Virus record (IMG/VR): IMGVR_UViG_3300049489_001336
Coordinates: 32,001 to 96,000 of that record
Strand: one strand, 5' to 3'
Source: a virus
Length of the DNA stretch: 64,000 nucleotides
Positions 9,451-43,637 of this stretch are shown one piece after another. The position numbers and the translations under genes were made by a program. The notes under the pieces are model-generated. The model was not told where the DNA came from. It saw only the letters and a list, made by a program, of their open reading frames with translations, and searched no databases. Numbering within the stretch: the stretch's first letter is position 1; every line of letters starts with the position of its first letter.

Positions 9451-10074
9451 ATGTACTACGAATACGGACAGCGCGCAGCCTTACAAAAGCTTGGCATGGG
9501 TGCCGCACCTATCCCTTACGCAGGTGCGTCTACACCGACTAACGACATGTTCTCCGCAAACAAACGGCAGGACATTTGGAGCGAAGTGGACAGCACGCCT
9601 ATCGCAATGAGTGGCGAAGAGTCTGCACAAGGAATGCCGAGTGCTCCAAAAAGCGCGAGCTACACAGGCGTAGTCGCTCAGGGCAGTGGCGACGGATTTC
9701 GCGGAGATCCTGAACGTAAAAACAAGTTTGAAGATGGGGTGCGGCGAGCGTTTCAAAGCAACGCCGATATCGATAACAGCACCACCTCTGAACCCGGATT
9801 TGCGTCTCCTAAATTAGCCAATAGCTTTTTCAACATCGGCAAAGGCCTACGTCCGAGCAGCTTAGGTCCGCGCAGTACTTCTTCATTAATGGGTAAGACG
9901 TCACCCAGCATGCCAAAACCTGGCGGCAATTTAAATGCGTCTTTGAACCCCATGAAGTCCCCGGTGATTAAACCCCCGACACCCATGCAGCCTAATTTAG
10001 CGCGGGGAGCTCACATGTCCCTTATGGGATCAAGCGTCAACTCTCCAATGCATCGGTTTACGAGTCCTTTATGA
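9451..10074 (+). CDS. putative internal virion protein with N-terminal targeting-like motif
   Basis: N-terminus YEYGQRAALQKLG; internal KSAS and KLAN; largely disordered. Confidence 0.55.
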   Translation: MYYEYGQRAALQKLGMGAAPIPYAGASTPTNDMFSANKRQDIWSEVDSTPIAMSGEESAQGMPSAPKSASYTGVVAQGSGDGFRGDPERKNKFEDGVRRAFQSNADIDNSTTSEPGFASPKLANSFFNIGKGLRPSSLGPRSTSSLMGKTSPSMPKPGGNLNASLNPMKSPVIKPPTPMQPNLARGAHMSLMGSSVNSPMHRFTSPL

Positions 10075-11453
10075 GCTTCGCTTATTACTGTAAGTACGCG
10101 ATGAGCACGCAATTTCAAACCATGGTTAGTGCCACTGGTGAGGATGGGCGCGTGCATTCTCGCACTACAGATAATCCTCGTAATCAGGTATCCAGCGCTT
10201 TTGAACAACAAGCGCTACAAATGGCGAATGAGCCTAGTGAGTCCAATCAATTTTCTGTGGGATCAGATCAAAGTAAAACTGCCATTGATTTAGAGACACT
10301 GAAACAACACAGTAAAACACCTGTGCGCGTAGACTCTCGTGCAGATTTTACAGGTGGCGGTTTTTACCATCCTAAAGAGGATTTTATAGGGATCAGCGAA
10401 GGCGTCGACCCTAACATTTTGGCACATGAAATAGGCCACACTAAATTCCAAAACAGTCTCCTAGGAAAAATTACACAGAGTGCCCCCGCACGTCTGATGC
10501 ATAACTTATCCCCTCTTGGGATGTTAGCTTTGGGTGGTAAACTGCAGGGTGATTTCAAAAAGCGTTTATTAAAATCGATGGGACTAAGCTTTGGAATGAG
10601 TGCCCCTACCCTGATTTCCGAAGGCGGGGCCGACTATCACGGCTATCAGACCTTAAAAGAATTAGGCGCGGACGACGCTCGATTAAAAGAATTTAGAAAT
10701 AAAATGATACTACCGGCTGCATCGTATTTAGCAGCCCCTATTGCAAATACTGCATTTGGCATGCATCTTAGTCGCCCCACGAAACCTGCGAATACTAAGA
10801 CGGCAGGCCGTGCCCTGGCACGCACCCTGAAATTCCGTGATCTCGACGTTTCAATCGAGACCGATAAAGGCAGCTACCGCCGTTGGTATGACCCGCATAC
10901 CAAGCAAGAAGGCAAAACACTAATGCAGTACCCGTACGGGTATATCCGCCGTACGCAAGGCATGGACGGCGATCACATCGATTGTTTTGTTGGACCCAAC
11001 GAAAAGTCTGACAAGATATTTGTTATTTTAACGAATAAAGCACCTAATTTTGACAGAATCGATGAAGAAAAGTGCATGTTAGGTTTTGACTCGGCCGAAC
11101 AAGCCAAGAAGGTATTCTTGGACCATTATTCGGACCGCAAATTCTTTAATTCCATGAAGATCATGTCTTACAACGACTTCAAGGACAAAGCGTTAGCAAC
11201 GCTTAATGGCGGTGTAAAGAAACTCAGCGCTGCGCAAGACGCGTCTTCGCTAGCTGGATTTGACAGTCAAAATTCAGACTTTTTAGAGACACCTAGGGGC
11301 CGGGCTTTTATTGCATGGAACGGGTTTCAACCGGGTACTTTTATGAGTCCGTCAACGCGTGTTGACCGGATGTTCCGTGCGCATGACAATGCGCCTTCTA
11401 CGGATGCTGTAGAAGGTAACACCAACGCACATCCTGCAGAGCCGAGTCTCTAA
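10071..11453 (+). CDS. multidomain protein: zincin-like metallopeptidase plus InPase-like (polyvalent-protein inorganic pyrophosphatase) domain
   Basis: ILAHEIGH with downstream E; IETDKG...MQYPYGYIRRTQGMDGDHIDCFVGP...DEEKCMLGF...AKKVFLDHY. Confidence 0.6.
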   Translation: MSFAYYCKYAMSTQFQTMVSATGEDGRVHSRTTDNPRNQVSSAFEQQALQMANEPSESNQFSVGSDQSKTAIDLETLKQHSKTPVRVDSRADFTGGGFYHPKEDFIGISEGVDPNILAHEIGHTKFQNSLLGKITQSAPARLMHNLSPLGMLALGGKLQGDFKKRLLKSMGLSFGMSAPTLISEGGADYHGYQTLKELGADDARLKEFRNKMILPAASYLAAPIANTAFGMHLSRPTKPANTKTAGRALARTLKFRDLDVSIETDKGSYRRWYDPHTKQEGKTLMQYPYGYIRRTQGMDGDHIDCFVGPNEKSDKIFVILTNKAPNFDRIDEEKCMLGFDSAEQAKKVFLDHYSDRKFFNSMKIMSYNDFKDKALATLNGGVKKLSAAQDASSLAGFDSQNSDFLETPRGRAFIAWNGFQPGTFMSPSTRVDRMFRAHDNAPSTDAVEGNTNAHPAEPSL

Positions 11454-12283
11454 TGCAAATCACCCTTACAAAAACGACGCCAATCTACAGGTCTCCTGCA
11501 GACATGGGCGTATTTTTGCAGTGGGTAGTTACCAACGCACCCTCTGCGGATTTATCATTTAAGGTAGAACGTGCAGGAAGTCCTGAAGGCCCTTTTGAGC
11601 TTGTCTTAGACAAAGTAAAAGGATTCCATTTCATGGATTCTTTCAGACATACACCAACACCTGGCGTTGGTGAGACCAGAGAGAATCTCAACTTTTTATC
11701 CTTGACGCGCGAAGTTTATTACCGCGTAACTGCCTACGCGGGTTCTGATGAAGCTTCAGTAGTAGATGAAGTCGGTAATAAATTACCGAAACGCCAAGCT
11801 TTATTATTGCGTAAAATACAAAGAGACTTGGGTCTTTCGTTTAAGTTCAACGGTACCGACCTTGCAGTGGTAAAGAGAAAACACTGGGGTATTCGCTGTA
11901 CCAAATGTTTTGATAAACTCACGAAAAAAGTAACGAATAGTAAGTGCCCTGTTTGTTACGGGACAGGTATTGTAGACGGTTACTGGAACCCTGTGCGTAT
12001 CAAAGCTCGGCTTGGTGCGCCTAGCTCTGATACACAAACAACCCCACAAGGTAAATCCGACATAACACAATTACGGGTTACATGTTTGCCGTATCCGAAT
12101 ATTGAGCCTGACGATATCCTTGTCGATATCGCGCTTAACCAGCGGTTCATCGTAAAGAATCAGGCACAGACTGAGATAAAGCGAGAAACGGCGCACCAAA
12201 TACTCGTTATATCCGAGTTAAGCCGTGACTCTATCGAATATCAAATACCCGTCAACAAAGACCACAGTCCGGTGATTTACTAA
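11453..12283 (+). CDS. putative neck/head-closure protein with Zn finger
   Basis: 276 aa; CTKC...CPVCYGTG; C-terminal PNIEPDDILVD..LNQRFIV head-closure-like strands. Confidence 0.5.
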   Translation: MQITLTKTTPIYRSPADMGVFLQWVVTNAPSADLSFKVERAGSPEGPFELVLDKVKGFHFMDSFRHTPTPGVGETRENLNFLSLTREVYYRVTAYAGSDEASVVDEVGNKLPKRQALLLRKIQRDLGLSFKFNGTDLAVVKRKHWGIRCTKCFDKLTKKVTNSKCPVCYGTGIVDGYWNPVRIKARLGAPSSDTQTTPQGKSDITQLRVTCLPYPNIEPDDILVDIALNQRFIVKNQAQTEIKRETAHQILVISELSRDSIEYQIPVNKDHSPVIY

Positions 12284-12960
12284 TGGCTGGTCATGAAACC
12301 CGTGCAGTGCGCCCTAAAGGGGAACAAGACAAGCTGCGTATTGCAGCGGGGTCTCCGTTGGCTATTCAGGGTCTGTTTTTAGAAATTATTCGAGAACGAT
12401 TTAACGCAAATGCGAGATTGGACTGGGTGTGGGACGCAGACCCGACACTTACTAAGATTTTAATTGAGACCAGTTACAACGAACACACAGAAGCGCGTGA
12501 CGTATCTCCGGCAGTCTATGTAACCCGACTACAGTCCGCGCCGGTTAAAATGGCGGTAGGTGATCGTGCAGGTGTGCACCTTCCAGATCACAAGGAAGGT
12601 TTTAAAGCCCTCATGGACATCGCCATGGTGGTTGAGTGCATGAGCAACGACGAAGGTGAGAGCGCGATTGTCGGGGATATCGTGCAGTTCATGCTTCTCG
12701 CATCTCAAGACATTATTCAACGTGAATTCGGATTCCACGATTTTACACACCCAATACTTGGCCAAACACAGCCCGTTGAACGCGGGCAACTAAAATGGTC
12801 AACTCCGATCAACTTCAATGTTCAGTTTTGGCTTCACTGGAGCAGTGTGCCGATAGCGCCACTGCTACAACAGTTAGTGCAGAAAATCACCACAAAAGGC
12901 AGTGACCTATTCAAAGAGAGTGTACTAAACTCTATGCGTAGGGGCTCTTCCTCGGAGTAA
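12283..12960 (+). CDS. putative tail completion/terminator-like protein (paralog 1)
   Basis: 225 aa; position between neck and sheath genes; paralogous to 12962. Confidence 0.45.
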   Translation: MAGHETRAVRPKGEQDKLRIAAGSPLAIQGLFLEIIRERFNANARLDWVWDADPTLTKILIETSYNEHTEARDVSPAVYVTRLQSAPVKMAVGDRAGVHLPDHKEGFKALMDIAMVVECMSNDEGESAIVGDIVQFMLLASQDIIQREFGFHDFTHPILGQTQPVERGQLKWSTPINFNVQFWLHWSSVPIAPLLQQLVQKITTKGSDLFKESVLNSMRRGSSSE

Positions 12961-12961
12961 C

Positions 12962-14026
12962 GTGCCTAAGCCAAAAAACACCTTGGTTCGTCCGAAGCAA
13001 TTCGTGCAGGACCCTTTGAAAATCGCGGCGGGCTCCCCGCTAGCGATACAAGGTGTTTTTCTGGAAATTTTGCGTGAAAGATTCCGTGAGGATTCGGGTC
13101 TTGGTATTGTTTGGCGTCCCGATATTACACAAACAGACCTCCTCATTGAGACGGGCTTCAACGAAGAGCTCGAAAGCCGTAATAAGGTTCCTGCAATTTA
13201 CGTAAATAGATTGCAAACAGTTCCCGGCAAAATGATTGTCGGTGATCGCGTTGGCGTCCATTTACCGGACCATAAAGAAGCATTTGGCGCATTAAATACC
13301 GTCGTTATTTCTATTGAATGTGTATCCAATGACGAGGGCGAAAGCGCCATTTTAGGCGATATCGTCCAATATATGCTGTTGGCTTCTCAAGACATTATCC
13401 AAAGTGAGTTTGGATTCAATGATATGTCGCATCCGTCGTTAGGGCAGACAGCGCCTTACGAACGGGATCAAACAAAATGGGCAACGACAATCGATTTCCA
13501 GGTACAATTCTGGATTCGGTGGAGTCAGGTACCCATCGCTCCTTTGTTGCAGCAAATTGCACAACGCATCTCGCACAAAGGTGTGGACGCGGGCGGACAT
13601 TTTGTAGACATAGCTATCAATTCTTTAAAGCGTGGCGAGGTACTAGACCCAAGTACGATTACTCCGGGCACGGAACCCCCGCCTAGTCGTGTAAGTATCG
13701 TTGGACCGCAAGGGCCTCAGGGCCCGCAAGGAATTCCTGGCCCTGCAGGGCCCCCCGGTCAAACGGTCTATTTAAAAACAGAAACTACGACACTTACAGG
13801 CACAATAAACGGTGTCAACAGTACGTTTGTAAGCCCCGTCCCATTTATCCATAATTTACAAATCAAAGAACGAGTTTATCTAAACGGCATACGGCTGCGA
13901 GAAGGCGCAGGCAATGATTATACAGTCGCGCAAAGTGTCCCCTTGGGGGGTTACGACACTATCGTATTCGCAGTCGCCCCACGGCCTGGGGATTTAGTCG
14001 AACTCGAATACTATGAGGATACGTAA
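12962..14026 (+). CDS. putative tail completion-like protein (paralog 2) with collagen repeat and C-terminal beta domain
   Basis: Shares IAAGSPLAIQG, HLPDHKE, SNDEGESAI, PIAPLLQQ with 12283; GPQGPQGPQGIPGPAGPPG. Confidence 0.5.
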   Translation: MPKPKNTLVRPKQFVQDPLKIAAGSPLAIQGVFLEILRERFREDSGLGIVWRPDITQTDLLIETGFNEELESRNKVPAIYVNRLQTVPGKMIVGDRVGVHLPDHKEAFGALNTVVISIECVSNDEGESAILGDIVQYMLLASQDIIQSEFGFNDMSHPSLGQTAPYERDQTKWATTIDFQVQFWIRWSQVPIAPLLQQIAQRISHKGVDAGGHFVDIAINSLKRGEVLDPSTITPGTEPPPSRVSIVGPQGPQGPQGIPGPAGPPGQTVYLKTETTTLTGTINGVNSTFVSPVPFIHNLQIKERVYLNGIRLREGAGNDYTVAQSVPLGGYDTIVFAVAPRPGDLVELEYYEDT

Positions 14027-14077
14027 GTAATTGTATTCCTAACATATATTACGCCACTGTAATTGTTAAACTGAGAC

Positions 14078-14110
14078 AGGGCTCCTATCATTCAACTGAC
14101 AAGGAGCCCT
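14078..14110 (+). promoter_or_regulatory. RBS-sequestering hairpin upstream of 14115
   Basis: Perfect 9-bp inverted repeat AGGGCTCCT/AGGAGCCCT; the 3' arm contains the AGGAG Shine-Dalgarno. Confidence 0.55.
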
Positions 14111-14114
14111 CGCG

Positions 14115-15668: not shown

Positions 15669-15680
15669 TAGAGGTGACTA

Positions 15681-16265: not shown

Positions 16266-17138
16266 ATGCGCGCCTTGGTTATTAGCGGAGGGGGCTCTCG
16301 GGGCCAATATCACGTAGGTGCCTTAAAATATCTGTATTTAGATAAAGGCTACCAACATCAAATCCTCTGCGGTAACAGCGTAGGCGCCCTCATCGCAGCG
16401 TTTATTGCACAATACCCGTACGGAAAAGAAGCAGATGCTATTAACACCCTAGCCAATCTGTTTCTACACATCCGTACGGAAAACGTTAAAAAGCCGTGGC
16501 GCCCTTTTGGCCTTTTCACAGGATTTAGGTCCAAGAAAAGTTTGTGGAATAGTCATCCACTTCAAGAGCTTATTTCGACGCATATAGACGTTCATAAAAT
16601 ACAAAGCACAGGCCGGGCGGTGCGCGTAGGCATGACCCGTATTTCTCCTAGAGATAGGAGTAATTACGAAGTCGCCACAGAAAACCACCCTGAGCTTATC
16701 CAAGCTATTCAAGCGTCTGCGGCGCTTGTACCTTTTTTTGAACCCGTACGAGTTGATCAAGACTGGGCCATTGACGGGGGCGTACAGCAAATAACGCCTA
16801 TTCGCTCCGCGATAGACGCAGGGGCTACCGTCATTGACGTCTTAATGTGTTATCCGCCCATGCTCAAGTTTCCGGCTACCCGTGAGATGTCTGTACTGAA
16901 TCTAGGTTTCTTTACCTTTGATCTTCTCTTGCACAATCTCGCTTGGACCGATGTGCGGCGCACACAGTTTATTAACCGCATGGTCACCGACTACAATATC
17001 GCGGATAAACGCCGCGTAGAGCTCAACCTTATTTATCCCAGCAAGGATCTGGGCGTAAACGCGCTTGAGTTCAATTACGTGGACGCCTTACGCCTACAAA
17101 ACCAAGGGTACGTAGACGCGCGAGAAACTCACAGATAA
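16266..17138 (+). CDS. patatin-like phospholipase
   Basis: GGGSRG oxyanion loop, GNSVG nucleophile elbow (GxSxG), IDGG catalytic Asp motif. Confidence 0.9.
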   Translation: MRALVISGGGSRGQYHVGALKYLYLDKGYQHQILCGNSVGALIAAFIAQYPYGKEADAINTLANLFLHIRTENVKKPWRPFGLFTGFRSKKSLWNSHPLQELISTHIDVHKIQSTGRAVRVGMTRISPRDRSNYEVATENHPELIQAIQASAALVPFFEPVRVDQDWAIDGGVQQITPIRSAIDAGATVIDVLMCYPPMLKFPATREMSVLNLGFFTFDLLLHNLAWTDVRRTQFINRMVTDYNIADKRRVELNLIYPSKDLGVNALEFNYVDALRLQNQGYVDARETHR

Positions 17139-20932: not shown

Positions 20933-21676
20933 ATGTCGCTCGGTATTACCCGCAATTTGACGACTTGGCGTTTCCAAGATCAGTACGTAGAACGAGTCAT
21001 GGATAACGCTGCGTATACGTCGGCTCATCCCGACGATACGCTCGTCCTGGCGGGACCCGCGCGTTCGCACCAGGCTTCCCCTTCGGCCACGGACACTATC
21101 GGGTCGTTGTTGGCTATCGGCATGATGCAGAATTTGTCGATTAACCAAGTTAAATCTACGACACCTGTTATGGCCATCGGTTCTGGCCGTTCGTTCTTCG
21201 TGAGCGGCAAAGCGCAAGGCAGTGGATCTATCGCTCGTCTTTTTGTGAATGGGCGCAATTTACTTCGCGTTCTGTATCACAATGCGCGTACGCAAAATCT
21301 CGCAGTAAATGAGCTAGACGATCCTGCTGCGCTGTCGGGCACGAGTAAATTTTACATCAATTTAGACTCTGAGTTGTACCTAATTCCTTTTGGGTTAGGG
21401 ACTATTTTCAGAACTAAATCACGCGATTTTATCGGCGGCATGTACGCAGAACTTACGATGATTCAGTCGTATAACATCAGTGTACAAGCAGGTTCTAACA
21501 TGATTGCCGAGCAAGTCGGCTTCATGTTTGATCGCTTGATGCCCTTTTCAGACCCGACCAACATGACCGGTGTACCCCGCGCCACCTTAGACGAGGTAGT
21601 TGGGTTCCTCGACAAGACAGATGAGGAAGTTGCTAACGAGTCCTTAGGCTCCGCAACTGTGGCTGCAGTGGTCTAA
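20933..21676 (+). CDS. tail tube protein
   Basis: 247 aa; AIGMMQNLSINQ...MAIGSGRSFFVSGK...GSIARL...YNISVQAG..MIAEQV tube-like pattern downstream of the sheath; RBS AGGAG. Confidence 0.7.
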   Translation: MSLGITRNLTTWRFQDQYVERVMDNAAYTSAHPDDTLVLAGPARSHQASPSATDTIGSLLAIGMMQNLSINQVKSTTPVMAIGSGRSFFVSGKAQGSGSIARLFVNGRNLLRVLYHNARTQNLAVNELDDPAALSGTSKFYINLDSELYLIPFGLGTIFRTKSRDFIGGMYAELTMIQSYNISVQAGSNMIAEQVGFMFDRLMPFSDPTNMTGVPRATLDEVVGFLDKTDEEVANESLGSATVAAVV

Positions 21677-22086
21677 TGCGTTTGTCTGCACGTACTGCAG
21701 GAGCCTATGCCGCAGCGGCTCGACTTGGGCTTATCAAGTTGAGCGCTGCGGGCTCTTCTGCGCTTGTGCATGTACCTCGAAGTGCACCTTCATTTACGCC
21801 CGCGCGACTACTCGGGGGCGCAGCGGTAGGCGCTCTTACAGGGGGCTATTTAGCTCCAGAGGACCGTACAGGAACAGGCACCCTGTATGGCGCAGCGCTT
21901 GGCGCTTTGGGCGCGGGCACAGGCCACGCACTCAGTCCATTACTGCAAGACGCCCGCAGTATTCGTAAAAGCAACGCAATTCCTGCGATGGGCACCGCGT
22001 TAGGAACTCTCTCAGGAATCGGGGCTACGCAGGCCTTGATTAATAAAGATGTAGCGGATACTTCAGAGAACCCATACCGCTACTAG
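21676..22086 (+). CDS. small Gly-rich putative internal virion protein with targeting-like motif
   Basis: GAYAAAARLGLIKLS then ALVHVP; three glycine-zipper segments; similar to 43200. Confidence 0.55.
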   Translation: MRLSARTAGAYAAAARLGLIKLSAAGSSALVHVPRSAPSFTPARLLGGAAVGALTGGYLAPEDRTGTGTLYGAALGALGAGTGHALSPLLQDARSIRKSNAIPAMGTALGTLSGIGATQALINKDVADTSENPYRY

Positions 22087-22300
22087 TCGAAATCCTCTAA
22101 AGGGCTTTGCTTGTAAATTAGTTATTCACCAATTCACAAGCTTCTATCAAGCACTCTTTTGCAAGAGTTCTCTCATTGCGCTCCAGCCGAGCGCGTGAAT
22201 ATTAATCGCAGCATTGAGATCTCTGTGCATGCGTAAGCCACAGAAAGAGCAAATATGCTCTCGCATGTCTAAAGTCTTTTTAGTTACTTTTTGACATTGC
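22085..22300 (-). ncRNA. putative TnpB omega-RNA (scaffold overlapping the tnpB 3' end; boundaries approximate)
   Basis: Expected position from TnpB biology; ...AAAGCCCTTTAGAGGATTTCGAC resembles a shortened IS200/IS605 right end. Confidence 0.35.
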
Positions 22301-23253
22301 GAACAACGTTGCGTTGTGCCTTTTGGGTCCACTGCAATGGCGTATTTCCCAGCTTCTTCCGCTTTGGAAATTAAACATTGCGTGAATTTGCCCCAAGCGG
22401 CGTCATAGATCGATTTCGAGAAACGGCTTTGAGCCATTCCTTTGATATTCAGTTTCTCGTAAGCGACAAAGTCGTATTTAGTGACTAGCGCCTTTGCTAG
22501 CTTACGGACAAAGTCTAGCCGTTGATTTCTGATTTTTTCGTGTGCTTTAACGACCAAAAGCTTTGCCCGCTTGCGAGAATTGGACCCTTTCTTTTTCCGA
22601 CTGAGCGCTTGCTGTCGTTTGGCAAGGACGTCTTCAGACTTATGGTAGAATCGAGGATTCTCGATTACGTCAGCGTTAGAAAGAGTCGCAAAGTCTGTTA
22701 GACCAACATCAATGCCAATAGAATTCTTGATTTGGCTGACTTTGGTAGGAGCTTCTCCAAGGTCACATACGATAGAGACAGCCCAGCCTTTGGATGTTCG
22801 CATGACTTGTGCGTGCTTCGGGATGCCTTGGAGCGGCCGATACTTTTTGAATTTTACAGAGCCTAGTTTAGGAACAATAATAGTATTACCAGAGATCCTT
22901 GGCACAGAAAATTCAAATGAATCGTAGCGATCAAGGCTGCGAAACCGCGGGTAACCTGGCGTTTGTCCTGCTTTGATTCTTCTAAAGAACGCTTTAAAAG
23001 ACCTATCTAATCTAATCAAAGTCTGTTGTAGAACAACAGCAGATACCTTACGGAAGTCTTCGTTATCGTGCCTAAGTTGGGTGAGCTCTTTGTGTTGATC
23101 GTAAACGTTAATAGCCTTTTTTTGTTTACGATAAGCGTCTCTACGTTGCTCCAACCCTGCGTTGTATAATTGCTGACACGCTTTCAATATAAACATTAGC
23201 TCAATTTCTTGAGCTTGAGTTGGTTGTAGAGGGTATCGGAAAGCGCGTATCAC
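22147..23253 (-). mobile_element. tnpB: IS200/IS605-family TnpB RNA-guided endonuclease (solo, no tnpA in window)
   Basis: N-terminal RAFRYPLQPT, RuvC triad GIDVG / YEKL / HRDLNAAINI, CSQC...CSFC Zn finger. Confidence 0.92.
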
Positions 23254-24832: not shown

Positions 24833-25295
24833 ACGTGTCTTCGTTAACAGTGATAACACCTTTGCAGCCCTCAACGGCACAGCGATAGCAAAGCGTCACA
24901 GTATCACGTTCCTCGGTATTGAGTGTGTCCTGTTCTATGCTGTTACCCTGGGAGGTAATCTCTACATTTTGAATTTGCGCCACTAGGGCTAGTCGCTCTT
25001 TTACAAAAAACTGTGCGTTCTTGCATTCGGGACAAATAATAGGTTTTCTACGACCGTTTACTGCGCGTTCCCACAAAACGGCTTTATCTACGTACGCGGT
25101 GGCTTCAGCTTCACGCAATGGAAAATGGTGCTGGCATACTTCACAGCGCATTAATTGCTGAGACGCAAATGTAGAAGGGCTTTCAAGATCTAAAAAAGAA
25201 AATTGTTGAGAATAAGGAACACCTGTTTCCATATAAATAAAACAACCGACGATGCGCACAGCTTGCTCATGACATTTCGGGCAACGTATAGACAT
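24813..25295 (-). CDS. double zinc-ribbon protein
   Basis: Start MSIRCPKC at 25295; CPKC, CEVC, CPEC, CAVEGC. Confidence 0.6.
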   Translation of the reverse strand: MSIRCPKCHEQAVRIVGCFIYMETGVPYSQQFSFLDLESPSTFASQQLMRCEVCQHHFPLREAEATAYVDKAVLWERAVNGRRKPIICPECKNAQFFVKERLALVAQIQNVEITSQGNSIEQDTLNTEERDTVTLCYRCAVEGCKGVITVNEDTFKVTPL

Positions 25296-25344
25296 TGTCC
25301 TTACGTACATGATCTTTTGACAAAAAGCAACGTCAGGTGTTTCT

Positions 25345-25725
25345 TCATTTGAAGCAATATTGCTTCTTATATGTTTTTGCAGTCCACAGACGGATCGCTG
25401 TGACTTTCTCAAAGGGCAATTCCTCGACCGTGAAAGGATCCACTTTCGGAGGTGAAAATACGCCCTTTTCAGGGGTATAACGCGGACGCAACGGAGCCAA
25501 CAGCACAACAGAACCGCGAACCCCAACAAGGTATCCGCGTTTCTCTCGATCTCCCAAGGAGAGATATACAAACGCAGGAGCGACGCGCTGAAGCTCCTTG
25601 TAAAGCGCTTCGCGCACTGCATTTGCGTATGCATGTTGCGCATCTACTTCTTTCACGCCTTGGTGTACAACTAGGCCCGTTACGGTAACCAGCGACGCTG
25701 CTGCAGCCACGCCGAGCCACAGCAT
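25345..25725 (-). CDS. membrane-anchored hypothetical protein
   Basis: N-terminal hydrophobic helix followed by a small beta domain. Confidence 0.5.
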   Translation of the reverse strand: MLWLGVAAAASLVTVTGLVVHQGVKEVDAQHAYANAVREALYKELQRVAPAFVYLSLGDREKRGYLVGVRGSVVLLAPLRPRYTPEKGVFSPPKVDPFTVEELPFEKVTAIRLWTAKTYKKQYCFK

Positions 25726-36275: not shown

Positions 36276-37772
36276 CTACTCGTTTTGAGTAGATGACAGG
36301 GCCGCAGTGCCTACGCCTAAGCCTGTCCCAAGACCCGCAGCACCCAACAATGCTTTATCTTGGTGCATACGCCCTGTAACACTTTCCTGTAACTTCCTAC
36401 TTATCAAAGGATTATTAAATGTTCCTGGTGTAGGATTAGATTCTATCAAACGAAAAGTGCCGTCAGGAAGTTCCGCGACATCAAATGCTTGATGAAGCGG
36501 GGCGTTATCGTAGTGCGATGTTAAAGGCTTATTCACTTTGCTAACAAAGTCTTCTAAAGCTTGGCGTCTATCCCCCGTAACGGGCATATGCGCAAAACCG
36601 CCTTCGCCTATTCCAAGGCTCGAAGACATCCTGTTCCACGCATCACGTATTTTGCCTTCAGGCAAACGGCGATGTGTCGATGCAAAGGGGACGCCTTGAA
36701 CCGTATGTACACGATACTCATTTTTGATGGGTATCTTTTGTTGAAGAATAAACCTGTTCGGGTTCTTCGCAATATCCTGCCAACGAGAATCCTTTAAGTC
36801 CGTTTTATTACTGACGAATGATGCGACATCGCCAAGGGACTCATCAACGGGTTTTATGAGCCACCCTTCCGGTAAATTTTTCGCTAAATGATTTTGAAGA
36901 GCATTCACATCTCCGTTAAATGCTTTCAAAACGTCCTGCATCTTTTCAGTCTCGGGAATTACGGCAGTGCCATCGTCTAAGTGTTCACGCACCTGTTTGA
37001 ACACGTCACCGAACGTGGCTTTATCCGCCATTGCTCCCGTTAAGCCTGAGTTCGCCGCATTTAGATCCACTTTACCTTGCACGGGGATCTGCGAAAAAGG
37101 AGATCCGTGGTGTAATACGGTGCTGTCTCTACGTAAGACTTCACGGTTTTTAGCAGCGGCAGCGACATCATCTGAAATGTCGTCAGCGCCGTATAAAACG
37201 CGACGTACAGCTCTCCCCAACGCCGAACCCGTAGGTCGATGCGTGGCTACTTCAAACGGGAGATCCTTCGCTTTTTCTTGGAGCTTCTGTAACGCAGGAG
37301 AGTCACTCGGTTTGAATCGACGTAAATATTTATACGCGGGATACATCGCGGCAGCGCCTAACCCTAAGCCTGTCAAAGTATCCTGCGTATCCCAATCATT
37401 TGCGAGCTTTACGCCTAACACATGGCATGCTGCTTTTTTACCTTGGGTATAGGGAACAGACTCTCCCACTGTATCAATAAACGTGGTAGAGGCTGCAGCA
37501 GGGCTCGGGGGACGGCTGAGAGTTTGCGGCCCTACGTTTAGAGACGACGAGGGCGGCGCTCCAGCGCCTAGCTGTTTGGTTACTGGCTGAGCAGCCAGGC
37601 GTGGTGTATTTTGCGAAACGCCGTATGATGCACCAGGTTTGCGCCGTAGATACTTACCTAGGCCGTAAGCGCCGAGACCCAGCGCCCCTACGCCAAGAAC
37701 AGACCCCCATCCCAGTCCTTGCTCTTTTTGGGATTGCTGCGGGTATTGTTGATTTTGATATGGGTTATTCAT
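36276..37772 (-). CDS. RimK-like ATP-grasp ligase with hydrophobic ends and internal targeting-like motif
   Basis: MADKATF, VIPET, WLIKP, ILQQKIP..EYRVHTV, AFDV...LIESN; QGKKAACHVLGVKLA. Confidence 0.7.
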   Translation of the reverse strand: MNNPYQNQQYPQQSQKEQGLGWGSVLGVGALGLGAYGLGKYLRRKPGASYGVSQNTPRLAAQPVTKQLGAGAPPSSSLNVGPQTLSRPPSPAAASTTFIDTVGESVPYTQGKKAACHVLGVKLANDWDTQDTLTGLGLGAAAMYPAYKYLRRFKPSDSPALQKLQEKAKDLPFEVATHRPTGSALGRAVRRVLYGADDISDDVAAAAKNREVLRRDSTVLHHGSPFSQIPVQGKVDLNAANSGLTGAMADKATFGDVFKQVREHLDDGTAVIPETEKMQDVLKAFNGDVNALQNHLAKNLPEGWLIKPVDESLGDVASFVSNKTDLKDSRWQDIAKNPNRFILQQKIPIKNEYRVHTVQGVPFASTHRRLPEGKIRDAWNRMSSSLGIGEGGFAHMPVTGDRRQALEDFVSKVNKPLTSHYDNAPLHQAFDVAELPDGTFRLIESNPTPGTFNNPLISRKLQESVTGRMHQDKALLGAAGLGTGLGVGTAALSSTQNE

Positions 37773-37778
37773 AAAACC

Positions 37779-38432
37779 TCACATGAACCCGCGCATCTCT
37801 TTGTAGAGTTGATCTATTTTAGCTTGGTTAGCCGCAAATTCTGCTTTTTGCTTATGCCCCATTGCAGCATGCTCACCAACCCCTGCAACATCATCAAAAA
37901 AATGCCCTACATGTTTTGGGTTATTGACAAACTTAAAAGCTTCTTCTGCAACAGCAGGGTCCATACCTACACGACGTGCGTTATCCGGGTGTAGGTATGC
38001 TTGCATCTTCTTCAAATTAGGTGCGTTTTTACGCGCATTGTTTAGCGCTTCCTGGACTTGTGGACTCAAGTTAGTGAAGTCCGTTTTAACAGGGCGGCTA
38101 CGCCCTCTCAAAAAATCGATTTCTTGTCGACGCAAATCATTTAAATAACGTTTAGCACCAAAGCCCAGCGCACCCGTGCCTAGTCCGTATACCCCCGCGA
38201 AGACTTTCTGTGCGGTAGGGTGGTCTTCAAGTAACGGGTCATTATAGACGCCCACGCCTGCAATTGCTCCAGGAACAACACCATGGGCAATTTCACTCGC
38301 GACGGGAGCTGCCTTTTCCTTGACAAACTTGGCCGCTTGTTCTTTGAAATTAGGAACAGGCGCTGCCGTTTTTGCAAAACCAAGGACAGCGAAAGCACGC
38401 CCTGCCCCGGCCATATAAATCTGATCTGCCAT
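37779..38432 (-). CDS. putative internal virion protein with J-domain-like HPD segment
   Basis: GAGRAFAVLGFAKTAA N-terminus; NLKKMQAYLHPD...AEEAFKFVN. Confidence 0.55.
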   Translation of the reverse strand: MADQIYMAGAGRAFAVLGFAKTAAPVPNFKEQAAKFVKEKAAPVASEIAHGVVPGAIAGVGVYNDPLLEDHPTAQKVFAGVYGLGTGALGFGAKRYLNDLRRQEIDFLRGRSRPVKTDFTNLSPQVQEALNNARKNAPNLKKMQAYLHPDNARRVGMDPAVAEEAFKFVNNPKHVGHFFDDVAGVGEHAAMGHKQKAEFAANQAKIDQLYKEMRGFM

Positions 38433-38456
38433 GGCCTAAGTATAGGCTAAAATTAG

Positions 38457-38529
38457 AGCCCCCTGTCGGATTCGAACCGACGACCGCCAGTTTACAAAAC
38501 TGGTGCTCTACCGACTGAGCTAAAGAGGC
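38457..38529 (-). tRNA. trnT: tRNA-Thr(UGU)
   Basis: GCCTCTT/AGGGGGC acceptor, CCAGT-TTTGTAA-ACTGG arm. Confidence 0.9.
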
Positions 38530-38563
38530 GAATAGGCTAAGCCTACTCAAAGCCCCTTTCCCG

Positions 38564-39259
38564 TCAATCTATTTCTAGAGTGAACGGAGCAGGTGGCAAA
38601 TAACGCTCTACTTGGTCTGGGCGTAGAGCTTCTACGACAGCTGATTTACGGACAAAGTTTTGCCGGCCAGGTCCTACACCGTCAGTTTCAAAGCACTCGC
38701 CTGTGCGAATATTCTTCGCACTACGAACAGGAACTACTTCCTTAGGCGAGCGGATAATCTCCGCGCCTTCTTTAATAGCCCAACCCGGTGAACTGCTAGA
38801 GTCCGTCCATACCTCCTGATAACGAATTCCTACAGGAACCACTACGTACGGATCGGAGTCCGTACAGCCCGTAGTCCCGTGATATTCACTGGTGCTCCTT
38901 GACAACTGGTTTGGGTCCAATTCTCCTGTCAAAGGATCCAATAAAGCATACTCAAACCCCAAACTGTCTTTGAATATCCTCTCCTTCACTCCGTGAATTG
39001 GCGCCAGTTCGCCATTGGCATCGCGCCATTTTGGACCGCGTGCGTCCCCAGGATCTCCCTTCGGACCTTGCGGGCCTTGGATTCCTTGAGGGCCTTGGGG
39101 CCCAGGTTCACCTTGAGGTCCCTGAGGTCCCTGAACTCCTGCTACGCCGTCATTCCCGGTAGCGGCTAGCGTGGGTTCTGCTGCTTTGTTTTGCAGCCCC
39201 AGGTCATCGCCGCCGCACGCCACCACAAGCAATAGGCAGCACAAAAATAGACTTTTCAT
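38564..39259 (-). CDS. collagen-repeat lipoprotein
   Basis: Signal peptide with lipobox VVA-C(GGDD); about 11 Gly-X-Y triplets. Confidence 0.7.
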   Translation of the reverse strand: MKSLFLCCLLLVVACGGDDLGLQNKAAEPTLAATGNDGVAGVQGPQGPQGEPGPQGPQGIQGPQGPKGDPGDARGPKWRDANGELAPIHGVKERIFKDSLGFEYALLDPLTGELDPNQLSRSTSEYHGTTGCTDSDPYVVVPVGIRYQEVWTDSSSSPGWAIKEGAEIIRSPKEVVPVRSAKNIRTGECFETDGVGPGRQNFVRKSAVVEALRPDQVERYLPPAPFTLEID

Positions 39260-39311
39260 AATCCCCACCTTCCTTGACACTTGTGCCACAAAAAGGGGCG
39301 TTTTTATGAAG

Positions 39312-39710
39312 TTAAGGACTGAGTAGTCTCAGTACTTTTTTACGAAAATAACCAGGCGCGTTCTCCTCTTTTTCGAGGATTTTATTTACCTCGGTGAGCG
39401 TTAAGTTTTGTACTTTGTAGAGATCTGCAAAAGGCTGCGGATCCATTACTTTCCAAAACCTGCGACGCGCCGCCCGCGCCTGTGTCAGCGGTGCATTAGC
39501 CATTGTCAACAGAAAGCGGTCTTCAGGAGACAACTTCTGCTTTGCAGCATCAATAGCTATCTCCAACGCTGTTAATTGAGGCTGAATCGCTTCAACCTCT
39601 TCTGCGAAATACTTTGTGATCGGCGCATCGGGCGCGATCTTGTGTAAGAACCACATAATGACAGACCACAGGCCCATCGAGGTTCTATGAACCTTAAGCA
39701 TGGTAGACAT
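39312..39710 (-). CDS. hypothetical protein
   Basis: 132 aa ORF with GGGAG RBS and upstream GGTACAAGA motif. Confidence 0.55.
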   Translation of the reverse strand: MSTMLKVHRTSMGLWSVIMWFLHKIAPDAPITKYFAEEVEAIQPQLTALEIAIDAAKQKLSPEDRFLLTMANAPLTQARAARRRFWKVMDPQPFADLYKVQNLTLTEVNKILEKEENAPGYFRKKVLRLLSP

Positions 39711-39759
39711 GACGCCATCTCCCTTCGACGTCTTGTACCATTATTATGAAGGTAATTAG

Positions 39760-39830
39760 CGCTCTCGGCGGGAATCGAACCCGCATTGCTGATGTGAAAA
39801 ACCAGTGTCCTAACCGCTAGACGACGAGAG
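39760..39830 (-). tRNA. trnE: tRNA-Glu(UUC)-like, anticodon loop one base short
   Basis: GCTCTCG/CGAGAGC acceptor, GTCTAGCGGTTAGGAC D-arm, CTGGT-TTTCAC-ATCAG arm (6-nt loop). Confidence 0.75.
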
Positions 39831-40088
39831 CTTTTTACGACCTTCTGCAGTGATAAAGTATCTTAGTGCAGTCGTTTCGTCGATTTCCCAACGGAGGTAT
39901 CCCCGCTTGATGAGACCGTGCATCGAACGTTCGGTGTAGTCTACACGCGTATCTCCTATGCGAAGACGGATCTGCGCAAGCAGTAGCCCCGTCTCTCTAT
40001 GCAGCTCCGCCAAGATACGTAACTGAGCTTCTCCAAGACTTTTTGAGGCACGTTTTTTAACAGGAGACCCTGTAACCGCCAAACGCAT
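39810..40088 (-). CDS. small winged-helix-like protein
   Basis: AQLRILAEL...MHGLIKRGYL....YFITAEG wHTH-like pattern; 3' end overlaps the tRNA-Glu 5' end. Confidence 0.45.
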   Translation of the reverse strand: MRLAVTGSPVKKRASKSLGEAQLRILAELHRETGLLLAQIRLRIGDTRVDYTERSMHGLIKRGYLRWEIDETTALRYFITAEGRKKLSSSSG

Positions 40089-40155
40089 ACGTTAATGCAA
40101 ACCTATACCTGTTTAGTACGTAGATACAACCAAGAAGTGTACTAAAATAACTGCG

Positions 40156-41604
40156 ATGCCTTCGAAACTTTCAGCGTTGATAACGCCTTTACAGCCTCAT
40201 CAGCAACGCGTTTTAGAACGTATACAGGACCCGAACCAGCCGGGGCTTGTCGTTGCCCATGGCTTAGGTTCTGGAAAAACGTTGTCTTCGATCGCGGCGG
40301 CCGACGCGTTACAAATGCCCACACACGTAGTAGTGCCGGCAGCGCTTAAAGCAAATTACTTAAAAGAACTACAGAAACATCGTGTTAATCAAGAAGAGGA
40401 TTTCAACATACACTCTTTACAGCGAACTTCGCGTGTCCCTGACGTACCTAATTTAACCGATAGTGCCCTCATAGTTGATGAAGCCCACAGACTTAGGGAT
40501 CCTAGCACTAGAGGCAATCAACTATTTAAACACTTGCGCGCTAAGAAGCGCCTACTTTTAACTGCAAGCCCTGTTTATAACCACCCTGCCGATTTATCGT
40601 CATTGGTCAACCTCGCTGCAGGCAGTAAACAACTTCCTGAAGATCGAAAAGACTTCGAAGCCGCCTACACAGGCATGGAAAAGATAAGCCCCGGTTTCTG
40701 GGCTCGTTTACGCGGCGTAAAACCGGGTGAACGTCAAGTCCTAAGAAACAAGGCTCATCTACAAAAAATACTTAATAAATGGGTTGATTACCACGAAAAT
40801 ACAAGTACCGAAGATTTCCCCTCTACTAAAGAGGAAATCGTAAATGTTCCAATGTCTGAAAAACAACAGGAAATCTACGATGGCCTGTTAAACAAAGCTC
40901 CTTTTTGGATTCAATACAAAATCAAGAATAACTTGCCTCCTACGAAGCAAGAAAAGCAGTTAATCAACTCATTTTTAACGACACAGCGGCAGGTCGCAGG
41001 CAGTCCCCACACATTCGTCCAAGGGATGTCCGTGGACGAAGCGGTGAACCACACGCCTAAGATTCAAGAAGCTTTGAAACGTCTCAAAGCACAAATGCAG
41101 GCAAATCCTGACCACAAAGCAGTTGTGTATTCTAATTATTTAGATTCAGGGCTTGAGCCCTATCGGCATCTTCTTGAAAAGGAAAAAATCCCCTATGGGA
41201 TGTTCACGGGGAAGATGAAGAAAAAAGAAAGAGATCAATTAATACTTGATTACAACGCCAACAAAATTAAGGCGTTGTTGTTGAGTTCTGCAGGCGGGGA
41301 AGGTCTGGACTTAAAAGGTACCCGTCAAATCCAAGTCTTAGATCCGCACTTCAACGAAGAAAAGATTCGGCAAATCATTGGGCGAGGCGTTCGTTATAAG
41401 AGCCACACTCATTTGCCTGAAGACCAACGCAACGTGCTCATTGAGCGTTATTTGTCCAAAAATAGACCGACATTTTGGAACAAACTGACAGGTGGGAACA
41501 AAGACACTACCGCTGAAGAATACTTGGATCAATTGTCCAAGGAAAAGCTGCGGTTAAATGATCAAGTTATTGAACTACTCAAACAACGTAATAGTACAAC
41601 ATAG
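40156..41604 (+). CDS. SF2 (SNF2-related, poxvirus D6/D11-like) helicase/ATPase
   Basis: HGLGSGKT, LIVDEAH, LTASP, GGEGLDL, QIIGRGVRYKSH. Confidence 0.88.
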   Translation: MPSKLSALITPLQPHQQRVLERIQDPNQPGLVVAHGLGSGKTLSSIAAADALQMPTHVVVPAALKANYLKELQKHRVNQEEDFNIHSLQRTSRVPDVPNLTDSALIVDEAHRLRDPSTRGNQLFKHLRAKKRLLLTASPVYNHPADLSSLVNLAAGSKQLPEDRKDFEAAYTGMEKISPGFWARLRGVKPGERQVLRNKAHLQKILNKWVDYHENTSTEDFPSTKEEIVNVPMSEKQQEIYDGLLNKAPFWIQYKIKNNLPPTKQEKQLINSFLTTQRQVAGSPHTFVQGMSVDEAVNHTPKIQEALKRLKAQMQANPDHKAVVYSNYLDSGLEPYRHLLEKEKIPYGMFTGKMKKKERDQLILDYNANKIKALLLSSAGGEGLDLKGTRQIQVLDPHFNEEKIRQIIGRGVRYKSHTHLPEDQRNVLIERYLSKNRPTFWNKLTGGNKDTTAEEYLDQLSKEKLRLNDQVIELLKQRNSTT

Positions 41605-41614
41605 CGTTTAAAAC

Positions 41615-41689
41615 CTCCGACGCCAGGACTCGAACCTGGAACCCCCAATTTAACAGATTGGTGCTGACTACCAATTGAGCTACGTCGGA
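41615..41689 (-). tRNA. trnN: tRNA-Asn(GUU)
   Basis: TCCGACG/CGTCGGA acceptor, CCAAT-CTGTTAA-ATTGG arm. Confidence 0.9.
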
Positions 41690-41720
41690 ATGATTCTTAA
41701 TCGTACAGGACGCCAAGCAA

Positions 41721-43181
41721 ATGTCAATACCCCACCACAATGGAAGATTGCGCGCACTGTTAGCCTTAGGCTTCAAGCTAGCTGAATACGCCCCCGGCAT
41801 CCCCGATAAGTCACGGGTCGTCCCGTTGCCCGACATCCGTAAGCCGACGACGTGGAAGCTCAGTATCCAAGAACATAATGCAGACCGCGCAGGAAAGCAT
41901 CTTGACTTGCGTCTTGTCGACCCCCGTACGGGCCATGCACATTCTTGGGCAATTCCGCGCGCGGAACTCCCCGCGCCAGGGAAAGCGGTTCTCGCAATAC
42001 AGCAGCCAACGCACACAGCGGATTACGCGCTTAATTTTGGAAAAAACAAAGTCGACGTAATTCCTGAAGGGTATGGCAAAGGCAGCGTACGCAGCCATAC
42101 GCTTGCAGACGCTGATGTGTTTCACAGTACGCCCGCGCCAAAAGGTACGCGTGTACGCTTTAACGTATACAAATCAAAAGGCCCCGAAGAGTACGCAATT
42201 GTTCGCATGGGGAACGGCTCTGATTTGCTCGTCAATAAAACTTTGACTAGGGAGCGCGTACCCCAGTTGTTATTGGGCGAGAAACCCAAAACAAAAGAAG
42301 TAGACGTTACTAAAGTTAATCCGACGTCCAAAGATGAAGTTTGGATGCCGAAGTACGATGGGGCGCATACTTTAGTTTTGTTGAGTGATGAAAACAAAAT
42401 TCCAAGGCTTTTTTCTTATCGCATTCCTAAGAAACATACGGCAGGGCTTATAGAGCACACGCACAAAGCCCCTGACTTATTGGTACGTCGTGTACCTAAA
42501 GACCTGAAAAATACGGTGCTACGTGCTGAGACGATAGGCATTACATCTGAGGGGAAAGCGATTCCTGCGTCAGACGTGGCGGGATTACTCAACGCGACTG
42601 TAACGAACTCCCGAGAACGCCAGAAAGAGCTTAACGCAAAGCTTGTCCCTGTACTCTTTGATATCGAAAGTATCAAGGGTAAAAGCGTCCAGCATTTACC
42701 TTTTGAAGAACGCTACAAGTTACTCAAAGGCATTGGAGAGCGTTTACAACTTCCGGTCACGGACACCGCTTTTGATACCGCAACCAAAGAAAAACTTCTC
42801 AAACACATACGAGAAGGAAAGCATCCTCACACCTCTGAGGGTGTCATGATACAGTCTCTATCGACGAACAGTCCTGCGCAGAAGGCCAAGTTTAGACCAG
42901 ATCACGACGTGTACGTGCGTGAGATTTTCGAAGCTGTAGATGCACGTGGCAAAGGTTTAGGCCGTGCCGGCGGTTTTGAGTATTCATGGACGCCCCGAGG
43001 ACCTATCGTAGGCCGTGTAGGAACAGGCTTTGACCACGCCTTAGCCCGCGACATGTTTATTAGCTCTAATAAATATACGGGGCGGGTCGCCAAGGTGGAC
43101 GCCGAACGAAAAAACCCAAGTGGGTCTTTATCTAAACCAAGTTTTATCGCTTGGCATGTGGATAAAGGAAAACAACTATAA
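41721..43181 (+). CDS. LigD-type 3'-phosphoesterase fused to an ATP-dependent DNA ligase
   Basis: PE: IQEHNA..GKHLDLRL, HSWAIP, PTH..DY, GYG.G; ligase: PKYDG, LFDI, EGVMI, KAKFRP, OB domain VGRVGTGF. Confidence 0.85.
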   Translation: MSIPHHNGRLRALLALGFKLAEYAPGIPDKSRVVPLPDIRKPTTWKLSIQEHNADRAGKHLDLRLVDPRTGHAHSWAIPRAELPAPGKAVLAIQQPTHTADYALNFGKNKVDVIPEGYGKGSVRSHTLADADVFHSTPAPKGTRVRFNVYKSKGPEEYAIVRMGNGSDLLVNKTLTRERVPQLLLGEKPKTKEVDVTKVNPTSKDEVWMPKYDGAHTLVLLSDENKIPRLFSYRIPKKHTAGLIEHTHKAPDLLVRRVPKDLKNTVLRAETIGITSEGKAIPASDVAGLLNATVTNSRERQKELNAKLVPVLFDIESIKGKSVQHLPFEERYKLLKGIGERLQLPVTDTAFDTATKEKLLKHIREGKHPHTSEGVMIQSLSTNSPAQKAKFRPDHDVYVREIFEAVDARGKGLGRAGGFEYSWTPRGPIVGRVGTGFDHALARDMFISSNKYTGRVAKVDAERKNPSGSLSKPSFIAWHVDKGKQL

Positions 43182-43199
43182 TCAAGCGAGGAGTCACAG

Positions 43200-43637
43200 A
43201 TGCATTACGAAAATGGTCGCGCAATTGCTTTGATGTCTTTGGGTATTAAAAAAGCAAATGCGCTTGTGCATGTTCCAGGAATGGGGCGTACTCTCCGGCC
43301 CGGCTTATCTAACGAGGCAAAAGCACGATTGCTTACCGGAATTACCGGCACTGCCGGAGGTGCCGTAGGCGGCGCTCTTGTAGACGATGAGGACCCGCTG
43401 CGCGGAGCTTTGTGGGGCGGAGGCGTCAACGCTGCAGGAGGCCTGGTAGGCGCTCTCGCTTCGCGGCACCTAAAAAAGAACGAGCCAGCTGTCCATCGAA
43501 TGTTAGAACCAATGTACGAGAATATGTTGAAGCGCCCAGGAACCGCTGCAGGAGTAAGTGCAGGTTCTGGAATGCTGAGCGGTGCTATAACTTCTGGTAT
43601 TGCGAGCAGGTTCCGCGGTACTCCTGAACAAGGCTGA
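43200..43637 (+). CDS. small Gly-rich putative internal virion protein with targeting-like motif
   Basis: HYENGRAIALMSLGIKKANALVHVP; glycine zippers; RBS GAGGAG. Confidence 0.6.
   Translation: MHYENGRAIALMSLGIKKANALVHVPGMGRTLRPGLSNEAKARLLTGITGTAGGAVGGALVDDEDPLRGALWGGGVNAAGGLVGALASRHLKKNEPAVHRMLEPMYENMLKRPGTAAGVSAGSGMLSGAITSGIASRFRGTPEQG

Follow-up and report, generated by a model that had tools for sequence, protein, structure and literature searches.

The tag and the genes that carry it

The stretch of DNA analyzed here (the window, 64,000 nucleotides) is bases 32001-96000 of one 189,879-bp viral contig, IMG/VR record IMGVR_UViG_3300049489_001336, whose genome is labeled G000 and whose proteome was taken as 247 open reading frame (ORF) calls (58,607 aa). 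Ten G000 proteins, six of them encoded in the window, share a 15-residue peptide, the tag, with the fuller motif [Y]-x-x-G-[RKQ]-x-x-A-[LF]-x-K-L-G-[FLMIV]. An earlier note on this DNA had reported the core of this motif, G-x3-A-x3-L-G, on six named window genes, and the translations place each copy exactly as claimed. Coordinates below are window positions unless given as genome positions, and a label such as w21676 denotes a gene by its window start.

Two tagged genes belong to the structural part of the genome. Gene 9451-10074, within the virion structural gene block, encodes a 207-aa Ser/Pro-rich protein that opens with the tag (9454..9498, plus strand, residues 2-16, YYEYGQRAALQKLGM) and whose remainder is probably disordered, while gene 21676-22086 (tag 21688..21732, plus strand, residues 5-19), the last of the structural block, encodes a 136-aa Gly-zipper protein. 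A two-gene tagged operon begins with gene 37779-38432 (tag 38376..38420, minus strand, residues 5-19), which encodes a 217-aa Gly-zipper protein; the J-like domain once suggested for it has no support in Pfam, with no match to PF00226 or to any other family even at E<=1. Gene 36276-37772 (498 aa) carries its tag internally, as had been described, upstream of an ATP-grasp-like domain (37410..37454, minus strand, residues 107-121); it has three Gly-zipper segments, a weak match to the ATP-grasp family R2K_3 (E=9e-4, below the gathering score), and a GTG codon 9 codons ahead of the invariant Gly that lacks a Shine-Dalgarno sequence. Gene 41721-43181 (tag 41730..41774, plus strand, residues 4-18) joins a LigD-type 3'-phosphoesterase (PF13298, score 26.0 vs. 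31.1 for gathering) to an ATP-dependent ligase (PF01068, 25.1 vs. 26.2), both with E of about 1e-5. The ligase and ATP-grasp labels thus have Pfam matches behind them, but every one of these matches falls below its gathering score. Gene 43200-43637 (tag 43203..43247, plus strand, residues 2-16) encodes a 145-aa Gly-zipper protein, for which an Atlas search returned only unnamed viral clusters. The four tagged genes outside the window are at genome 24538-24738 (66 aa) and 25143-25385 (80 aa), both encoding small acidic proteins, 112740-113171 (a 143-aa Gly-zipper protein), and 113197-114051 (284 aa, recognizable only by a HELGH (HExxH) motif).

The six window proteins had been called unrelated. 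They do have differing folds and are scattered over the genome, but w21676 and w43200 are paralogues (both contain ALVHVP and a Gly zipper), and the protein encoded at genome 112740 is a paralogue of w37779 (36% identity). Gly zippers, as called by a composition test, are concentrated among tagged proteins both in G000 (4 of 10 tagged vs. 5 of 237 untagged, Fisher p=1.6e-4) and in its relative G001, described below (4 of 9 vs. 6 of 274, p=9e-5). The corresponding Pfam models (PF13488, PF05433, PF13441) place a single G001 protein above cutoff (PF13488, 29.0 vs. 25), the others scoring below it at 16-24 bits.

Conservation of the motif

The motif is commoner in the G000 proteome than in shuffled versions of it, as had been predicted: the regular expression G-x3-A-x3-L-G-x(1-2)-K-x-[AS] matches 6 proteins, while 300 shuffled proteomes average 0.047 matches and never exceed 1. 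A hidden Markov model (HMM) of 16-18 columns, searched against all six frames of G000, finds exactly 10 ORFs, the next-best match having E=0.73 and reversed decoys giving 0. A second HMM, built from 35 copies, gives the same count in G000 (10 matches scoring 12 bits or more) and finds nothing in reversed sequences.

These 35 distinct, non-redundant copies come from G000 and its relatives, and their core aligns without gaps to the consensus xYxxGxxxALxKLGx. Gly is invariant at positions 5 and 14; Ala occupies position 9 in 34 copies and Leu position 13 in 32; position 15 is F, L, M, I or V in 34; Lys at position 12 and Leu at position 10 are each found in 24. Tyr at position 2, the residue at -3 from the first Gly whose frequency had already been remarked on, is present in 30 of the 35. 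An initiator Met stands 5-9 residues ahead of Gly5 in about 30 of the 35 copies, the tag beginning 2-5 residues past that Met, and in 4 the tag is internal, behind another module. Among the codons for the invariant G, A, L and G, only positions 1 and 2 are fixed, and third positions vary freely; such scrambling means that selection acts on the tag peptide and not on an RNA or DNA element. The tag is conserved and selected at the protein level.

No counterpart of the motif was found in Pfam, PDB or the literature. A profile search of 1.84 billion proteins returned this clade only, plus unrelated repeat proteins (TALE-like repeats and eukaryotic low-complexity sequence), and the tag is too short to be traced by profile search beyond this clade. 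The best match in a PDB profile search was herpes simplex virus (HSV) VP26, at a chance-level E=0.18. (The matching segment, 6cgr_G residues 55-70, RGQAAALTDLGLAHAN, belongs to the small capsomere-interacting protein, a capsid binder of an HK97-lineage virus.) One further G000 candidate, a 62-aa protein at genome 28515 with 'RAALKLGL', was treated as a chance match, its G001 counterpart being untagged. Readings of the tag as a type IV prepilin, signal peptidase, lipoprotein or PG_binding_1 sequence were discarded, as there is no hydrophobic stretch and no Cys, and the spacing is wrong.

Relatives and portability of the tag

An exact-pattern scan of IMG/VR with the back-translated strict motif gave a handful of contigs with true N-terminal copies, and a tag profile was then used to find the copies in relatives. 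The tag-bearing clade is narrow and uncultured, consisting of freshwater myophages of 180-200 kb that resemble Salmonella phage Arash and encode roughly ten tagged proteins per genome. Its best reference is G001, a complete relative of 179,934 bp with terminal repeats, which has 9-10 tag copies and in which 77 of the 247 G000 proteins find a match at about 50% identity, with strong synteny. G002 through G005 have three copies each, G011 has five, and G012 and G013 have weaker, divergent ones. The tag is absent from Arash, from G008 and from other more distant contigs, and none was found in relatives reached through the virion protein at 44113-45969 (L001, L002) or through the helicase (G006-G008). 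Because G008 shares only 20 proteins with G000, it is of no use for a presence/absence comparison. Megablast of the region against cultured phages gave no match.

Comparison of orthologues shows tag and cargo parting company. The SNF2 helicase of G000 (40156..41604, plus strand; PHROG 62, E=7e-49) is untagged, while its 61% identical G001 orthologue starts MSESYTQGRGDALLTLGIVKYA and so is tagged; the G000 protein starts 18 residues later than the G001 protein and has neither a tag nor a remnant of one upstream. In G001 the helicase is one of six tagged genes in a single tightly packed operon. In the ATP-grasp-like protein the position of the tag differs: residue 1 in G011, residue 107 in G000. 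Since the G011 orthologue (L096) is tagged at its N-terminus, the G000 gene has gained a 105-aa N-terminal extension, which is a duplicated Gly-zipper stretch. The positional orthologues of 9451 (in G001, G003-5 and G011) are 60-67% identical over the tag, against 17-29% over the rest. The G001 positional orthologue of 21676 (L046) combines a tag and a Gly zipper as well.

Three genomes, G000, G002 and G012, have a tagged LigD-type phosphoesterase. The G002 orthologue, P0003, passes PF13298 (39.4), but its ligase has been swapped for another domain, with a second tag at the junction: the single ORF (L035:949-2268) reads tag, LigD phosphoesterase, second tag, and then a domain with LYHGTSTARAAKILEEGL. 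The tag is a portable module that moves independently of its cargo.

Two side observations attach to these proteins. In P0003, LYHGTSTARAAKILEEGL (LYHGTS...GL) is a PARP/Tpt1-like H-G-T signature, and a local motif of the Arash virion protein gp96, VHHGTSHEAAASIKRSGL, resembles the same domain (BLAST E=3.5, a lead only). In distant orthologues of the helicase (L062:9956-11428 and L064:9935-11425) there is an N-terminal helix, A-[FL]-[LR]-x-A-A-R-L-L-K-E-A-[KR], which can be aligned with the G001 helicase tag at every residue, although both glycines are missing. The tag may have originated from this ancestral N-terminal helix of the helicase (A-x3-LLKEA in the distant relatives), as judged from the alignment.

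Predicted structure and fate of the tag

The earlier note had described an amphipathic helical tag followed by a protease site. A helix is indeed predicted: in AlphaFold2 models of the 66-aa family (10 sequences), residues 2-15 are helical, the helix stops at the Leu-Gly cap (pLDDT about 65-80), and a linker and then a second helix follow. The tag is read as a single alpha-helix running from Y2 to L13, closed by the invariant Gly14 and a hydrophobic residue. Amphipathicity in the classical sense is not seen, the hydrophobic moment being 0.23 vs. 0.26 in shuffles. The conserved residues nevertheless all fall inside one 160-degree arc, forming a face of Y2, G5, A9, L10, K12 and L13 in which G5 and A9 are the small residues. 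Invariant small residues in a small-xxx-small arrangement, such as this pair, are typical of tight helix-helix packing, and on the predicted model the Gly/Ala-centered face suggests tight packing against another helix or groove.

The protease site fares worse. K-x-A/S follows only 9 of the 35 tags (6 of 10 in G000, 3 of 25 in relatives), and the 35-copy alignment holds no other fixed motif downstream, the residues after the cap being variable. Some relatives have a second portable module of about 45 aa (the PFKS module, MPFKSEAQRRLFHVKA..GEI...V.EWE.ATKNK..LP.HVKK) preceding the tag; two of the four internal tags sit behind it, and the protein database holds 61-63-aa proteins made of this module and the tag only. 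Given internal tags and proteins of this kind, a retained docking element fits better than a disposable leader, and the tag is probably retained rather than cut off. The PFKS module (L060:5068-5421 in G001, L098:1363-1683 in G011, P0005, P0020-P0031) is also found with a basic tail in place of the tag; no source gives the module a name, and G000 is without it. Neither the module nor the small tagged proteins have a match in Pfam.

Genome context

The RNA polymerase (RNAP) genes of G000 open a co-directional block of 34 kb, which extends across the head and tail genes. Two of the small tagged genes lie between the split polymerase genes and are translationally coupled to them, and this gap holds tagged genes in G000, G001, G011, G012 and G013, in G012 including the tagged phosphoesterase-ligase. 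Tagged 9451 and 21676 lie among structural genes. Downstream of the tagged ligase and w43200, in the same orientation, comes a homologue of virion structural proteins known from cyanophages and HMO-2011.

Within the structural block, the prohead protease (2943..4802, plus strand) matches PHROG 18299 'head maturation protease' (E=2e-9). The AlphaFold2 model of its N-domain (pLDDT 53, core 70-86) has herpesvirus proteases and T4 gp21 as its top 30 Foldseek matches, the best at E 5e-3, so the predicted fold is weakly assemblin/T4 gp21-like. Its C-terminal part contains a Gly zipper, GALLGGAAYGLRR, of the same kind as in the tagged proteins. The major capsid protein (6935..7870, plus strand) is 79% identical to that of G001 and 41% identical to Arash gp226. 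Tagged 9451 adjoins a gene at 10071..11453 (plus strand) whose InPase domain is of a kind found in minor head and DarB-like proteins; together the two are an insertion between two conserved structural genes (the orthologues of Arash gp233 and gp234). The untagged Gly-zipper proteins called in G000 are all encoded in the RNAP/structural block or are the large gp4-like protein, the set including the head protease, head/tail-module proteins and a 1164-aa protein. (This last is likened to Arash gp4 by size and Gly zipper only; there is no BLAST tie.)

Most tagged transcription units of G000 also share a start geometry. In four of five such units, TATAAT stands 6-8 nt before ATG (p of about 1.5e-4, from a rough unit count). 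TATAAT or TATACT at this distance, with no Shine-Dalgarno sequence, occurs at window 38433-38460 and genome 112712-112739, 114052-114080 and 20117-20144, sites that belong to three tagged units and the start of the RNAP operon; the arrangement upstream of the 37779-38432 operon is TATACT-N6-ATG. From its placement, this -10-like hexamer near ATG looks like that of leaderless transcripts, and the geometry is conserved at the polymerase operon of G001.

Other genes lie close to these. A complete TnpB (22147-23253, minus strand; OrfB_IS605 E=3e-27, with a Cas12f-like TNB domain and HTH_OrfB) is inserted on the opposite strand directly after tagged 21676, within the structural block. Between the tagged operon and the helicase, 38564-39289 (minus strand) encodes a 241-aa protein whose N-terminus is lipoprotein-like (LLVVAC) and which contains collagen G-x-y repeats (PF01391, E=6.5e-7). 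A patatin-like phospholipase (16266-17138, plus strand; PF01734, E=6e-30) is found among the tail/structural genes, is conserved in G001, and may be a virion-borne lipase. Farther away, past the end of the window, small minus-strand genes follow one another at genome 103400-112700 (window numbering 71400-80700). In front of every one of them stand a terminator (GC hairpin plus T-run) and a promoter-like block, TTCATAAATCTCCCTNTTTCCCTGGTATAGG, that is nearly identical from gene to gene; several other genes have a related element, (TTAC)GGTAAAAGAA, 20-30 nt before them (e.g. at window 58328).

The virion of Salmonella phage Arash

The only cultured relatives of the capsid protein are those of Salmonella phage Arash (OQ632216.1; 41% identity) and three Vibrio phages. 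Arash, the closest relative in culture, resembles G000 in its capsid protein (41% identical), helicase (37%) and RNA polymerase (36%), and its gene order is the same: RNAP beta, several small genes, RNAP beta', helicase, structural genes, capsid protein. It differs in having no copy of the tag, its helicase being packaged without one. A de novo search of Arash N-termini found only Bro-N/KilA-type paralogues in common and no other shared motif.

Mass spectrometry of the Arash virion (PMC10585845) detected RNAP beta (gp206) with 128 unique peptides, the most of any protein, together with RNAP beta' (gp216, 40), the helicase gp217 (38) and sigma (gp10, 24); gp210 and gp213, small proteins encoded between the polymerase genes, are on the list as well (PMC10585845). 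The gene for gp217, the orthologue of the tagged helicase of G001 (37% identity, E=1e-95), directly follows that for beta'. All six Arash Gly-zipper proteins (gp4, gp97, gp191, gp213, gp224, gp238) are on the virion list (background 116 of 252, p of about 0.01). By analogy, and circumstantially, the presence of the Arash helicase, RNA polymerase and Gly-zipper proteins in virions would point to a virion role for the tag.

Interpretation and alternative explanations

The reading we favor, tentatively and at a little under an even chance, is that the tag is a virion-address or docking helix that would bring accessory proteins into the particle. The small-residue face of the helix would pack against one common partner during particle assembly, and this docking would draw accessory proteins, in a set that can change, into the virion: membrane-active Gly-zipper proteins, the phosphoesterase-ligase, the ATP-grasp protein, the HExxH protein and the small acidic proteins, joined in one relative by the SNF2 helicase. 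Once recruited, they would accompany the RNA polymerase and helicase in the particle and be delivered to the host along with the DNA. We infer that tagged proteins are packaged, that the tag is the cause and that the partner is single; the target may be the capsid interior, the packaged RNA polymerase, the tail or an intracellular complex. A narrower proposal is possible but rather doubtful: that the tag is a retained, position-tolerant handle that would clip swappable enzymes and membrane-inserting Gly-zipper proteins onto the packaged polymerase/helicase complex, or onto a capsid-internal receptor, for co-injection.

Several observations weigh against the virion address. No tagged protein has been seen in any particle, the sole proteome being that of a tagless relative, and since Arash packages its helicase and polymerase without a tag, the tag is not needed for those proteins. 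The Arash list is lax, with 116 of 252 proteins (46% of genes), and surely contains carry-over. No partner of the tag was identified, and no tag-like segment was found in the scaffold candidates (4862-6395) or the capsid protein. The four internal tags, the 61-63-aa module-plus-tag proteins and the lack of a conserved cleavage site argue against a leader of the T4 style. An intracellular role would also be plausible for the ligase, ATP-grasp and HExxH enzymes. Because the TATAAT-N6-ATG geometry is not seen at the tagged operon of G001, co-regulation is not relied on here.

The strongest competitor, an unlikely one, holds that the tag docks on the two-chain RNA polymerase of the phage, or on some other intracellular hub, so that a helicase, nucleic-acid repair enzymes and membrane anchors would be gathered in a transcription or repair factory and packaging would be a side effect. 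The tagged hot spot between the polymerase genes of five genomes speaks for such a hub, with its two small genes translationally coupled to the polymerase in G000 and its tagged ligase in G012, as does the Arash SNF2 helicase, whose gene directly follows beta' and which is equally abundant; internal tags and module-plus-tag-only proteins also suit a retained interaction element. Most of the cargo, however, is Gly-zipper protein with no obvious link to transcription, two tagged genes are located among tail/structural genes, and the helicases of G000 and Arash are untagged. The polymerase hub and the virion address overlap, in that docking on the polymerase (for example) would also give packaging.

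Less probable still, we judge, is a juxtamembrane helix, the cytoplasmic or periplasmic head of a set of phage membrane proteins, that would organize a membrane complex serving DNA entry, exclusion, lysis timing or the anchoring of replication, with soluble enzymes tethered through tag-tag or tag-zipper packing (G-x3-A against G-x3-G). Gly-zipper/2TM-like segments 10-40 residues past the tag in at least 6 of 10 G000 proteins and in 5 of 10 in G001 fit a membrane complex, as do an Atlas model of w43200 that resembles small helical membrane proteins and the helix-packing character established for small residues such as G5 and A9. Zippers need not mark residents of the cell membrane, though, since every Arash Gly-zipper protein is in virions and the head protease itself has one. 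Moreover, no zipper is present in the ligase, the helicase, w9451 or either of the two small acidic proteins, and the hydrophobic moment of the tag is not raised.

A cleavable capsid-targeting leader in the manner of T4, which would load proteins into the core of the prohead and be cut at K-x-A/S by the assemblin-type protease, is improbable. Herpesvirus assemblins cut Ala|Ser, the head protease here has a predicted assemblin/gp21-like fold, about 30 of the 35 tags stand at the N-terminus, and K-x-[AS] follows 6 of the 10 in G000. The same site follows only 3 of the 25 tags in relatives, where no other fixed site takes its place; some tags are internal, some proteins would be almost nothing after cleavage, the tag has no sequence likeness to the T4 peptide, and the protease fold match is weak (E 5e-3, pLDDT 53). 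That the tag is functionless, the best-conserved remnant of one expanded paralogous family, is very improbable: there are two paralogue pairs (w21676/w43200 and w37779/G112740) and many members share a plan of tag, linker and Gly zipper, but unrelated folds are tagged (SNF2 helicase, LigD phosphoesterase-ligase, ATP-grasp-like, HExxH, disordered), the tag is present or absent among orthologues, and four positions are near-invariant in 35 copies despite randomized third codon positions.

Comparison with known systems

In T4, the internal proteins IPI-III and Alt carry a capsid targeting sequence (CTS), according to the summary of Mullaney and Black (1996) given in PMC5694885. The tag resembles the CTS in being a short, portable N-terminal peptide on otherwise unrelated, fast-evolving proteins whose cargo includes enzymes, and in belonging to a myovirus genome whose head protease has (here by prediction) an assemblin/gp21 fold. 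It differs in sequence from MKTYQEFIAE and has no conserved protease site after it; it is also found internally or on tag-only proteins, and its cargo is dominated by Gly zippers.

Virions of phiKZ and SPN3US contain an RNA polymerase and many accessory proteins that enter the cell (PMC5694885, PMC10052503), and N4-like phages have sets of ejection proteins with a virion RNA polymerase (PMC13434306). The conserved N-termini of SPN3US gp53 and gp54, which are diverged paralogues, have been read as CTS-like (PMC5694885). In the phiKZ, SPN3US and N4-like systems the propeptides are long (about 100 aa or more), with cleavage at A/S/G-x-E, whereas the tag is a 15-aa helix on non-paralogous proteins. 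The polymerase differs too, being of the Arash type (two chains plus sigma) and not of the phiKZ type.

Further afield, encapsulin cargo-loading peptides and microcompartment encapsulation peptides dock cargo inside a shell by a short terminal helix and a flexible linker; encapsulin shells have the HK97 fold of phage capsids, and encapsulin peptides are usually C-terminal. These are similar to the tag in form, but the motifs differ, and for those systems the shell partner is known. The Dar proteins of phage P1 and the payloads of extracellular contractile injection systems are enzymes, helicase-type ones included, that are loaded into a particle via an N-terminal region and carried by it to the target cell. 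Those regions are longer than the tag and do not share a 15-aa motif, and no homology to the tag was detected. In principle, then, the tag is the idea of the T4 CTS and of the conserved N-termini of SPN3US and phiKZ, but it is not a member of those families; what is new is this helix, its Gly-zipper cargo, and its tie to the virion RNA polymerase operon.

Significance

The finding is confined to a narrow uncultured clade, and its support is circumstantial. Should the partner prove to be intracellular, the tag would define a new phage protein-interaction hub that takes in a helicase, a ligase, an ATP-grasp enzyme and membrane proteins. If the tag is a particle address, it would show from sequence only which proteins are injected by an uncultured group of phages, and foreign proteins could be loaded into a large capsid by a handle that is very short and seems tolerant of position. 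It would also tie Gly-zipper proteins to the ejected complement of myophages, and would represent a second, unrelated case of the principle behind the T4 CTS, here in a lineage with a packaged multisubunit RNA polymerase. If, further, the handle is retained, the ejected proteome of these phages would be both readable from sequence and reprogrammable by the addition of 15 residues.

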